A stretch of DNA of 64,000 bases from Candidatus Borrarchaeum weybense (GCA_019057385.1 JAHQJS010000006.1:384001-448000), one strand, 5' to 3'; shown: positions 34,516 through 37,020, counted from the stretch's first letter. Numbers and translations are program-made. Notes: a model not told the origin generated them from the letters alone.

Positions 34516-35343
34516 TCAGAAGATTTGCGAACTTTTTTTCTTTAAAAGCCCTGAGGCACCTTTTCTAATATCTTTTCCTTCTATCGTCTTCCTTTGAGAC
34601 GTACTTGCAATATTGGCTGCCCTTACGACAGTTTGAATGATTATATTTTCTAAAATATCTCGGAGAACATCTGGTGCATCTTGGCCTATTCTTTTTGCAC
34701 CAGCATCTTTTAGTAATCTCCTCATTGTAGTCTTTTTTAACTCATGTGTGTATAGTTTTGTTAAATCCCATCTTCTAATGAAATTTACAATAGCATCAAT
34801 GAGATCCCTTTCTCCTAATTTTCTATTTTTAGCTGCGATTTCGAGTTGAACAGCATGCACTCCTCTTGAGATCTTTCCGTGATACGATACGATATCACCG
34901 CCCATATACTGAGGTGCCTCCATAAATGCATATTCACCCTGAATATCTCTTGCTTCGAGTTCTTCACGGAGCATTTCAATATAATCAACGTCAATAGTAA
35001 CTCCACCAGACGTGCCAAATAAAACAGTAATTTCTTCGAATGATGTAATTGGTTTTTCCATACCATGAATGTCTAAGAGAAGCACTTCTGAATGAGTTTT
35101 AAGGAGATCAGTGATGATTTCTTGAATCCTCTTACGAAAAGGTGTGTCTCTCCACTTAGCCCTGTTGTAGTCTTTATCTTCACGTGAGACAGTCGCAATC
35201 AAGGCATATGCTCCAACTTCGATTGCAACTCTATATGCTATTTCACCTGTTAAGAGATCTGCACGTGGACCCATAGCATGAGGCGCCGTCAATAAGACTG
35301 GTATGTCTCCAGGAATCTCAATAAATCCTTTTAAAGTCAACAT
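34516..35343 (-). CDS. N-formylglutamate amidohydrolase-like Zn hydrolase fused to a C-terminal archaeal histone fold
   Basis: LLTAPH, ADLLTG, DYNR, LLDIHG, VQLEI; then ELKKTTMRRLLKDAGAKRI...RKTIEGKDI. ATG at 35343 has GTGGAG upstream (track start 35427). Confidence 0.85.
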   Translation of the reverse strand: MLTLKGFIEIPGDIPVLLTAPHAMGPRADLLTGEIAYRVAIEVGAYALIATVSREDKDYNRAKWRDTPFRKRIQEIITDLLKTHSEVLLLDIHGMEKPITSFEEITVLFGTSGGVTIDVDYIEMLREELEARDIQGEYAFMEAPQYMGGDIVSYHGKISRGVHAVQLEIAAKNRKLGERDLIDAIVNFIRRWDLTKLYTHELKKTTMRRLLKDAGAKRIGQDAPDVLRDILENIIIQTVVRAANIASTSQRKTIEGKDIRKGASGLLKKKSSQIF

Positions 35344-35544
35344 ATTTTTCTCCACAGACTTCGATGACCTCATAGAATTCCCTTGTGACTGCGGTGACAG
35401 AATGCAAAACTTCTTGATTACTTTCAATTCAAGGCTTATAAAAAAATATTTTATAATTGCTTTGTATTTATCTAGCGATTAAGATATTGCGAATCATCAA
35501 ACACTAACCTCATTAGACGAAATATATCTGTTTGAGGGATCGAT

Positions 35545-37020
35545 TTGGGTGTCATCGAAAATATTTGTCGTGAGTACGAAGTTGCTATCGGACTTGAAGA
35601 GGAACTGTTAATCATTTCAAAGGATGGGACACTTGTAGCTGCTGCAGACCAACTGATGGAAACTGCTGCAAGCCTATTGAACCAAGATGCCGAAAGACTG
35701 GAACGTATAATGTTGAAAATTAGGTCTCTGGATCCAGAACCCAACCTGGCACAAATTGAGCATGTGAGTTTACCGATTCCACTTTCAGAAGTTCCTTCAG
35801 CAATCACCGAAGGAAGGGCGCTTCTCTTAGATTCCGCAAAAAGCCTAGGCTATAAATTGTTTGTTCAAAGTTTACACCCTCTTGAGAGCAATCCACATCC
35901 TATGTGTGGAACTCATATCAATGTATCTGCAAAACGAATAGCTAACGAGATAATGAATCCTAAAGAGATATTAGCCGTATACAACCATCTTTGGAATCAT
36001 CTTCCAGAGCTCATAGCCTTATCTGCAAATACGCCAATCATTCAAGGAGAGAAGGGAGCGGTTAGTAATCGTGTTCTGAACTCAACTGTTCTGAAACCAA
36101 ATCCTTTTGGAAAGTTACAGATCCCTCGTCATCAACCTGCTTTAGTTCAAAATGAATACTATGGTGCCCTACGCTACTCGTTAAAAATAGGTGCACTTGA
36201 AAAAGAGCCAACAATAATCGCAAACACAACAGGACATAGATTACGCGACATTACACCGCGCGGCCCCTCTACAAACATTTCAGACGATAAGGAAGATAGT
36301 TTTACTCGAAATCGTATTGAAACAAGAATTTTTGACAATCAAAGAGAACCGAGAAGGTTAGTAGACTTATCGAGAATTGTGAGTGGGCTTGCAATTGAAG
36401 CACTGTGTCTTTTAGAAAAGGGCAGCCAAATTATTGAAAACCGTGCTCATGCTGTAAATCGAGAAAGAGCGATTTTAGATGGCATAAATGCCACTTTCTT
36501 ACATGAAAAGAATGGTTCTGTCATAGAAATTCCTGCTAGAGAAAGAGTTCTTGAAATGCTTAATCGGACAGAGATGCACAGAGAACTTCTAGGCGCAAAA
36601 CTTCAGACTGATTTGAAAAATGCAAAGACTGAAGTAGAAATAAAACGACCTCGCTTAGAAGTTGCGTATTCCAACCCTGAATTTGAACGTTTGCGAAGAA
36701 GTGGTAAAACGGTAGTATCCGTTCGCTTTGGAAAGGTTAAGAATGTTTCGGACATACGAAGTAGCAAGAAATATAAGATTTCGAGAGGTCAGACTATTAC
36801 AGGAAAACTTGGAATTGGGCTTTCTTTGACTTTTGATGAATCAGAAGCAACTCCAGGTCTAGTAACTGATTTCAAGGATGTTTTAATGAAAAACTATCTG
36901 CTGGTTTCAAGTATCCGTATTCCTCTCAATGAGTCGGATGAAATCATTGCTGCGATTTCTGAAGAAGAATACATGAGGAGACAGTTTTTTGGTGCGGATG
37001 CCTTTCCGTACTTTTTTTAA
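35545..37020 (+). CDS. GCS2/YbdK-family carboxylate-amine (gamma-glutamyl) ligase with extra C-terminal domain
   Basis: IGLEEEL, QIEH, HP..CGTHINV, LPELIALSANTP, SNR, RIETRIFD. Confidence 0.85.
   Translation: MGVIENICREYEVAIGLEEELLIISKDGTLVAAADQLMETAASLLNQDAERLERIMLKIRSLDPEPNLAQIEHVSLPIPLSEVPSAITEGRALLLDSAKSLGYKLFVQSLHPLESNPHPMCGTHINVSAKRIANEIMNPKEILAVYNHLWNHLPELIALSANTPIIQGEKGAVSNRVLNSTVLKPNPFGKLQIPRHQPALVQNEYYGALRYSLKIGALEKEPTIIANTTGHRLRDITPRGPSTNISDDKEDSFTRNRIETRIFDNQREPRRLVDLSRIVSGLAIEALCLLEKGSQIIENRAHAVNRERAILDGINATFLHEKNGSVIEIPARERVLEMLNRTEMHRELLGAKLQTDLKNAKTEVEIKRPRLEVAYSNPEFERLRRSGKTVVSVRFGKVKNVSDIRSSKKYKISRGQTITGKLGIGLSLTFDESEATPGLVTDFKDVLMKNYLLVSSIRIPLNESDEIIAAISEEEYMRRQFFGADAFPYFF

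Follow-up and report, generated by a model that had tools for sequence, protein, structure and literature searches.

In the synthesis of ergothioneine the GCS2-type ligase EgtA is accompanied by EgtC, an amidase of the Ntn class-II GATase-like kind by which the glutamyl group is taken off, and in the Puu pathway the ligase PuuA and the amidase PuuD, a member of Peptidase_C26, both have one glutamyl-type polyamine amide as their target. The glutathionylspermidine (Gsp) and trypanothione (TryS) synthetase-amidases likewise direct ligase and amidase activities at one such polyamine amide; for the trypanothione enzyme, synthetase and amidase activities that oppose each other on a single amide are documented (PMC2427367). 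In pupylation, the ligase PafA is paired with the bond-reversing enzyme Dop. A bacterial GCS2-like family adjoins a GATase-like thiol peptidase or an AIG2 γ-glutamyl cyclotransferase, an arrangement that has been read as synthesis of glutathione-like peptide metabolites and not as protein tagging (Iyer, Burroughs and Aravind 2008, PMC2588565). Here we analyse a gene pair of comparable logic in a stretch of 64,000 nucleotides from Candidatus Borrarchaeum weybense (GCA_019057385.1 JAHQJS010000006.1:384001-448000; G000:C6:384001-448000), hereafter called the window, which belongs to a 4.18-Mb assembly of 8 contigs rated 100% complete. A gene for a GCS2/YbdK-like carboxylate-amine ligase (35545..37020, plus strand; 491 amino acids, aa) lies head to head with a gene (34516..35373, minus strand; 285 aa) in which a metallo-amidase of the FGase family is fused to an HMf-type histone fold. 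In the reading that we favour, and to which we give about an even chance, the pair makes and breaks a small γ-glutamyl amine, and the histone fold tethers the amidase.

With the YbdK/GCS2 ligases (Escherichia coli YbdK, 1r8g; the Salmonella protein, 1tt4) the window ligase has in common a predicted glutamine-synthetase-like fold and acidic and basic catalytic motifs, but it is only ~15% identical to YbdK, from which it also differs by an insertion of ~28 residues and by a basic β-barrel C-terminal domain (C-domain) of ~120 residues. The neighbourhood of the bacterial GCS2-like family (PMC2588565) follows the same logic as the archaeal module, combining a ligase with a GATase-like peptidase and/or AIG2/GGACT and containing no Pup-like open reading frame (ORF). 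The bacterial family is, however, GCS2-sized, whereas the archaeal one adds the C-domain, FGase and ATP-grasp partners and one histone-fused partner; the two are likened by neighbourhood, not by orthology. The proposed module would resemble the first and last Puu steps, or the opposition within the Gsp/trypanothione synthetase-amidases, and the family of PuuD, Peptidase_C26, is the commonest partner of the archaeal ligase. The ligase folds differ, being ATP-grasp in Gsp/TryS and glutamine synthetase type I in PuuA, and the Puu pathway places between ligation and hydrolysis oxidation steps that the archaeal loci lack. PafA belongs to the same superfamily as the archaeal ligase and is similarly paired with an enzyme that reverses its bond, but the archaeal module has no Pup-like gene, its eraser is not a paralogue of the ligase and PafA ranks only 35th among the structural matches. 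The EgtA/EgtC system resembles loci of the Heimdall group, whose partner starts with Met-Cys; the window locus lacks a partner of that type, and EgtB/EgtD-like genes were not seen in the ligase neighbourhoods.

The fused histone fold has its nearest known counterparts in archaeal nucleosomal histones such as HMfB and in domain-fused prokaryotic histones, and it keeps HMf-type DNA-contact residues. The Rab-GTPase histones of Lokiarchaeota (PMC11390915) have a face-to-face-like fold, whereas the window fusion is HMf-like, has a metallo-amidase as its partner domain and has the residues of the tetramer interface replaced. No description of an FGase–histone fusion was found in the searchable literature, histone surveys included, in a search that did not extend to the 2009 amidoligase survey (Iyer et al.), which may list the archaeal neighbourhood.

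Conserved pairing of the ligase with amide-cleaving enzymes

The ligase was found as a single copy in 75 of 400 Asgard genomes and in 13 of the 90 among them that are of high quality. FGases of the clade represented in the window are present in 16 of the 400, and in all 15 genomes that carry both genes the two are immediate neighbours. A wider scan took one genome per species and used a full-length ligase alignment as query, partners being counted at loci uncut by contig ends. It returned 72 ligase loci, archaeal except for one 1.6-kb contig binned in a metagenome-assembled genome (MAG) of Rhizobiaceae; the family falls into ~25 clusters at 50% identity, all from Asgard, Korarchaeota and other Thermoproteota-type MAGs. 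An amide-cleaving partner lies within ~1.6 kb of the ligase at 70 of 70 uncut loci, and among the best 30 ligase loci 28 have it within 1.5 kb. Conservation of the neighbourhood, which an earlier note on this DNA had proposed as a check on its suggestion of a writer–eraser system, is thus borne out in both surveys. Because the adjacency is conserved, a chance neighbourhood is excluded, and the view that ligase and amidase form a functional pair with writer–eraser coupling is strongly supported. Prediction of a ligase–amidase complex gave a score of 0.00 and no answer, which counts neither for nor against binding.

The partner itself is not constant. Peptidase_C26 (C26) occurs together with GGACT at 35 of the 70 loci and alone at 11; an Ntn GATase accompanies GGACT at seven, and GGACT stands alone at four. 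FGase is the sole partner at five loci, is joined by an ATP-grasp protein at five more and is fused to a histone fold at three, to which the window is to be added. When ORFs around 21 loci were clustered and representatives scanned against Pfam, the neighbourhoods were of the following types: ATP-grasp, FGase and ligase, in Korarchaeota, Njord and others; ligase, GGACT and then an Ntn GATase-like protein starting with Met-Cys, in the Heimdall group; ligase, with or without GGACT, followed by a class-I GATase/Peptidase_C26 with intact Cys and His-Glu; and FGase with a C-terminal domain head to head with the ligase, in Sifarchaeum and one Heimdall-labelled lineage. The gene pair is divergent in these last two and co-directional elsewhere. 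The ligase and each type of partner have their catalytic residues conserved. GGACT partners (PF06094) are single-domain proteins of 110-145 aa, and the FGase partner also weakly matches the poly-γ-glutamate hydrolase family PF05908.

Cleavage of glutamyl amides is common to all of these partner families, namely C26 (γ-glutamyl hydrolase, PuuD), the Ntn GATases (EgtC), GGACT and FGase/PghP. Because four unrelated partner folds have this activity in common, we infer that the ligase makes a γ-glutamyl amide and the partner removes it. A role for the GATase partners as ammonia suppliers was also considered and was set aside as the common denominator, given that FGase and GGACT cannot supply ammonia.

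A quick maximum-likelihood tree of the ligase has FGase-partnered loci to either side of its midpoint root and gathers the GGACT/GATase-partnered loci into one clade with 100% support. This pattern fits a single replacement of an ancestral FGase partner, the order of replacement being tentative and the root serving for drawing only. Two related genomes have a glucanotransferase gene inserted between the ligase and GGACT genes. In three related genomes (L041-L043), two genes resembling the D component of 2-hydroxyglutaryl-CoA dehydratase (PF06050) lie directly upstream of ligase-GGACT-C26, which hints at a link between the module and glutamate fermentation in this one genus. The only GGACT-domain protein in the window's genome has 479 aa with the domain in the middle (G000:C4:103050-104489; minus strand in L053 6050-7489) and is unlinked to the ligase.

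The window ligase matches Pfam GCS2 (PF04107) at 27.1 bits against a cut-off of 21, in an alignment limited to residues 132-176, and falls below the curated NCBIfam cut-offs for YbdK/GshA (TIGR02050, 40.3 versus 176.4 bits; NF010045, 28.4 versus 395; others lower). Among named organisms its nearest relatives are in Candidatus Sifarchaeum marinoarchaea, at 89% identity, and Ca. S. subterraneum, at 55%, which places the window in an Asgard archaeon of the Sifarchaeia. Across 20 homologues, down to 29% identity, the residues E18, E19, E20, E65, E72, R91, H111, H124 and E155 are invariant, as are N162, R176, R232, R239, N244, R257, E259, R261 and D264. The ExE (E18/E20), HxN (H124 with N126) and ExR (E259/R261) motifs that the earlier note had recognized are present and invariant in the same homologues, and the catalytic motifs for binding metal, ATP and glutamate appear from the alignment to be intact.

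An AlphaFold2 model of the ligase (pLDDT, or predicted local distance difference test, 87; predicted template-modelling score, pTM, 0.82) had as its best Foldseek matches YbdK 1tt4 and 1r8g, with E ~1e-14 and target template-modelling (TM) scores of 0.64-0.68 over ~370-385 columns. Next came glutamine synthetases, plant glutamate-cysteine ligase (GCL) and γ-glutamylmethylamide synthetase; PafA (4bjr), at rank 35, had E 8e-8 and TM 0.37. The ligase is therefore modelled as having a glutamine-synthetase-like fold closest to that of YbdK. Such proteins of Asgard and TACK have been counted as GshA-like matches in a review on thiols in archaea (PMC7278568).

Two further features claimed in the earlier note, an insertion and a basic, β-rich C-terminal domain, proved to be real. 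The family-specific insertion relative to YbdK (residues ~185-235; 36097..36249, plus strand) measures ~28 residues, 71 family profile positions standing against 43 YbdK residues between two aligned blocks, and coincides with a low-confidence stretch of the model at residues ~190-220. The family-specific C-domain (residues ~366-482; 36640..36990, plus strand) is modelled as a β-rich barrel (pLDDT 84) and has an isoelectric point (pI) of 9.2 in the window protein and of ~9-10 in 19 of 20 family members. Foldseek of this domain against the PDB found nothing below E 0.03, a search of the Atlas returned the ligase family alone and a language-model search gave no usable match. VIA-align gave weak matches only, to SH3b/SH3/Hfq/WYL-like barrels with Z of 4-5.4, values that common arrangements also reach. 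When 1.84 billion proteins were searched with a profile of the domain, it turned up nowhere but at the C-terminal end of members of this ligase family or in fragments of them. At most, then, the C-domain may be called SH3/Sm-like by its model, and it is placed in no named family. A disordered aromatic tail follows (36991-37017, plus strand); across the family this aromatic/glycine tail reads FGGFGF in the Heimdall and Hod group, is F/Y/P-rich in Sifarchaeum and is absent from TACK members.

The amidase, its histone fold and the intergenic region

The FGase-family metallo-amidase domain of the fusion (PF05013; 47.2 bits, cut-off 28.9) spans residues ~29-221 in the numbering of a 303-aa reading frame (34765..35343, minus strand). 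H50, D57, R82, D86, N88, R98, D119, H121, G176-G177-D178, Q194 and E196 are invariant in 18 homologues, down to 30% identity, and the motifs align with the solved N-formylglutamate amidohydrolase structure 2q7s. The ratio of non-synonymous to synonymous divergence (dN/dS), at 0.04-0.17, indicates purifying selection. Identity with the N-formylglutamate deformylase HutG (TIGR02017) was rejected: the score was 27.8 bits against a cut-off of 278.75, and a search of the window's complete-rated genome for urocanase (PF01175) found no match.

The HMf-type histone fold occupies residues ~229-292 (34552..34743, minus strand) and is matched by Pfam CBFD_NFYB_HMF (PF00808; 38.2 bits, cut-off 21.4) and by NCBIfam archaea_histone (53.4 bits, cut-off 50); a short Lys-rich tail extends beyond it at the C-terminus of the fusion (34519-34551, minus strand). 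The pI of the histone part is 10.4, and its dN/dS of 0.18-0.36 again indicates purifying selection. In HMfB the residues R10, K13, G16, R19, R52, K53, T54 and D59 contact DNA or stabilize loop L2, and H49 and L62 build the dimer–dimer four-helix bundle of tetramers and hypernucleosomes, an interface to which L46 also belongs. Alignment to HMfB (1a7w) shows the whole of the first group kept in the fusion and H49 changed to T, L62 to K and L46 to I. Among the fusion orthologues the equivalents of R19, R52 and D59 are invariant and that of R10 is R or K. As judged from this alignment, the fused fold is an HMf-type histone fold that keeps the DNA contacts and lacks the residues of the tetramer interface, and the amidase is probably held on DNA as a dimer that does not polymerize or as a cap paired with free histones.

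The window's genome encodes six free histones, five of which keep H and L at the positions of H49 and L62; identity between the fused fold and each of them is only 29-33%. The histone at G000:C5:100552-100809 lacks the His equivalent to H49, unlike the other five, and has a Lys-rich N-terminal extension (AKKKKAAPKRAASKTR) before the fold, its start codon being unsettled.

The histone fusion occurs in Candidatus Sifarchaeum alone, and the histone fold is a late addition to the amidase. FGases of TACK and Njord carry instead an N-terminal domain of ~110 residues, called coiled-coil-like by composition only, which matched nothing but designed coiled coils and sub-threshold Pfam entries. In the Heimdall-labelled lineage (L051/L064) the FGase has a C-terminal domain with a weak MTH865-like match; homology of this appendage to the histone fold was rejected (hhalign probability 0.3%). 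The amidase seems always to need an accessory helical module. Because unrelated helical modules accompany the same amidase in different lineages, oligomerization suggests itself as the simplest common role of these appendages. Against G307 (L004) the fusion shows mosaic divergence, the FGase part having a synonymous divergence (dS) of 0.16 with 98% aa identity and the histone part a dS of 1.0 with 76% identity; this difference in dS suggests recombination at the domain boundary.

The head-to-head arrangement of the two genes across ~200 bp, as reported in the earlier note, is confirmed, with a gap of 171 bp measured from ATG 35373 (117 bp from TTG 35427 and 201 bp from the second ATG). The mechanical ORF of the fusion (34516-35427, minus strand) would give 303 aa if read from TTG 35427. 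Because its orthologues begin at MRSS or MLTLKG, and because of the position of an AT-rich palindrome, ATG 35373 is the likely start, yielding 285 aa. The divergent region common to both genes (35374..35544) is conserved within the genus and contains this palindrome, TTATAAAA-N5-TTTTATAA, at 35436-35456, with a TATA-like tract at 35436-35443. The palindrome is likewise conserved in the genus and probably represents two back-to-back TATA boxes, one per gene. A ribosome-binding-like site, GAGGGA, lies 7 nt ahead of the TTG of the ligase. We infer that both genes are co-regulated by one bidirectional promoter. Compared with the window and three other members of the genus, Ca. Sifarchaeum marinoarchaea (G305; L006, L062) has a 47-bp insertion in the presumed 5' leader of the ligase, at a point equivalent to window ~35480.

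Substrate of the pair and role of the histone fold

In our favoured reading the ligase would use ATP to join the γ-carboxylate of glutamate to an amine, the neighbouring enzyme would cleave that γ-glutamyl amide again, and the two together would set the level of a γ-glutamylated small amine. Candidate substrates are a polyamine, another alkylamine, an amino acid or a thiol. The FGase-type amidase of Sifarchaeum would have gained a C-terminal HMf-type histone fold, which, as such a fold must dimerize, would do so as a homodimer or with a partner among the six free histones; the amidase could then sit on DNA as a non-polymerizing or chain-ending unit, and the shared bidirectional promoter would co-regulate it with the ligase. 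GGACT needs a γ-glutamyl group with a free α-amino group, and its family acts on free γ-glutamylamines. This partner family, the small-molecule ligases that are the nearest structures, the missing Pup-like ORF and the published bacterial precedent together make us lean towards a small-molecule substrate. Small ORFs conserved across 29 loci were only shadow frames inside the ligase gene. A DNA-associated amine such as a polyamine, the side option of the earlier note, would fit the data better than protein tagging. If the favoured reading is right, an archaeal ligase family always coupled to a glutamyl-amide cleaver suggests an unrecognized γ-glutamyl-amine cycle in these anaerobes. The locus is also a clear case of an HMf-type histone fold joined to a metabolic enzyme, the fold having kept its DNA contacts and lost its polymerization interface. 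Should the fusion sit on DNA, it would be a natural case of enzyme targeting by incorporation of a histone fold and a candidate chain terminator of hypernucleosomes; both, if true, would bear on how Asgard chromatin gained regulatory complexity.

Several points weigh against this reading. The indications that favour a small amine over a protein amine as substrate are indirect. To make and break one bond in one operon seems pointless without regulation or a change to the substrate between the two steps, and no enzyme for an intermediate step is conserved in the ligase neighbourhoods. FGase proper cleaves the N-acyl (α) amide of glutamate and not a γ-glutamyl amide, and for loci with an FGase partner the γ regiochemistry is argued by analogy with the other partners. 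The reading does not account for the basic C-domain of the ligase, which would not be expected to bind a cationic polyamine. As to the histone fold, the equivalents of K53 and T54 vary among the fusion orthologues and the histone part shows faster evolution than the enzyme part (dN/dS 0.18-0.36 versus 0.04-0.17), so that DNA binding may be secondary to dimerization.

The faster evolution of the histone part is also what would be expected if the fold only dimerizes an enzyme of low-molecular-weight thiol or peptide metabolism, with the ligase a GshA-like synthetase of γ-glutamylcysteine or a similar dipeptide and the amidase its turnover enzyme, in the manner of a γ-glutamyl cycle. We consider this rather unlikely, although the ligase matches GCS2, Asgard and TACK matches have been reviewed as GshA-like (PMC7278568) and the operons of TACK, Njord and Korarchaeota include a weakly GshB-like ATP-grasp protein, mirroring GshA plus GshB; that the accessory domain of the amidase is elsewhere a coiled-coil-like bundle or an unrelated helical domain, suggesting oligomerization, points the same way. 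The ligase lies, however, far under every NCBIfam GshA/YbdK cut-off, and a patchy spread over 75 of 400 Asgard genomes, and 13 of the 90 high-quality ones, would be odd for the main cellular thiol and argues against a core one. The partner matches GGACT (PF06094) rather than GGCT/ChaC, which favours conjugates of alkylamines over those of α-amino acids, and R10, R19, the pair R52-D59, the pI of 10.4 and the Lys-rich tail would be superfluous in a mere dimerizer. If the fold is a dimerizer only, histone folds would be recruitable as generic dimerization modules. That the genes are unrelated neighbours and the fusion an artefact of assembly or annotation is refuted, with next to no probability left to it, by the adjacency at 70 of 70 loci and by purifying selection on both domains. 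The fusion is real because the junction of FGase and histone fold, like the intergenic region, is spanned by contigs from three further studies, of sediment, and orthologous fusions come from several independent sources.

The earlier note had proposed reversible tagging of chromatin proteins, with the ligase C-domain selecting the substrate. In this form, histones or other proteins bound to DNA would receive γ-glutamyl (isopeptide) tags at their lysines or N-termini, and the histone-fused amidase would erase these on chromatin; we regard the proposal as improbable. It can draw on the presence of the protein ligase PafA in the same superfamily and among the structural matches, the DNA-contact residues kept in the amidase's histone fold, the extra basic SH3-like barrel of the ligase, the Lys-rich N-terminal extension of one free histone and the universal pairing of ligase and eraser. 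Lineages in which the amidase bears no histone fold nevertheless have the same ligase and C-domain. Outside Sifarchaeum, the only lineage with the fusion, other appendages take its place; the C-domain is found in every lineage with or without it and so cannot have evolved to pick histones. No conserved tag ORF lies nearby, the GGACT partners come from a family whose substrates are free γ-glutamylamines, YbdK-type small-molecule ligases are much closer than PafA, and published reasoning on the analogous bacterial neighbourhoods opposes protein conjugation (PMC2588565). A chromatin protein as substrate thus finds no direct support. We think it similarly doubtful that the module targets chromatin-bound or nucleic-acid-bound amines, the ligase docking via its basic SH3/Sm-like barrel and glutamylating histone lysines or tails, or DNA-bound polyamines, and the Sifarchaeum eraser joining chromatin, pairing with free histones and capping hypernucleosomes; were it so, the archaea most closely related to eukaryotes would have a prokaryotic glutamyl mark on chromatin and an eraser embedded in a histone. 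Autoregulation by a trigger enzyme, the fusion binding the shared promoter and setting the transcription level of the divergent ligase gene by the load of substrate, has in our judgement very little probability. The head-to-head layout occurs exactly where the FGase has an extra C-terminal domain, Sifarchaeum having the histone fold and L051/L064 the MTH865-like one, co-directional operons are the setting of FGases that lack such a domain and a conserved palindrome lies within the 171-bp intergenic region; yet histone folds bind DNA with little sequence specificity, an AT-rich palindrome is more simply two TATA boxes and the correlation comes from two independent cases only.

Other genes of the window

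On the same strand as the amidase gene and 38 bp downstream of it lies a UPF0047/YjbQ gene, followed by one for a Ras-like small GTPase (33412-34477, minus strand). The UPF0047 linkage is kept within the genus but was not seen in the contig of Ca. S. subterraneum.

Far from the pair, at 3900-5900, is an island with a GC content of 0.50-0.56 in surroundings of ~0.36. It contains a gene for a 407-aa RRXRR plus HNH protein (4161-5384, minus strand) with the architecture of an IscB-like (OMEGA) nuclease, and its GC-rich non-coding stretch at 5400-5900 could encode the guide RNA of this protein; Rfam gave no matches, and PADLOC defence-system models gave none either. The island is flanked by genes for a histone-deacetylase-family protein (2724-3797, plus strand; PF00850, 1e-71), a PDCD5-like protein of the type that binds double-stranded DNA (6176-6571, minus strand) and a GNAT acetyltransferase (6778-7305, minus strand).

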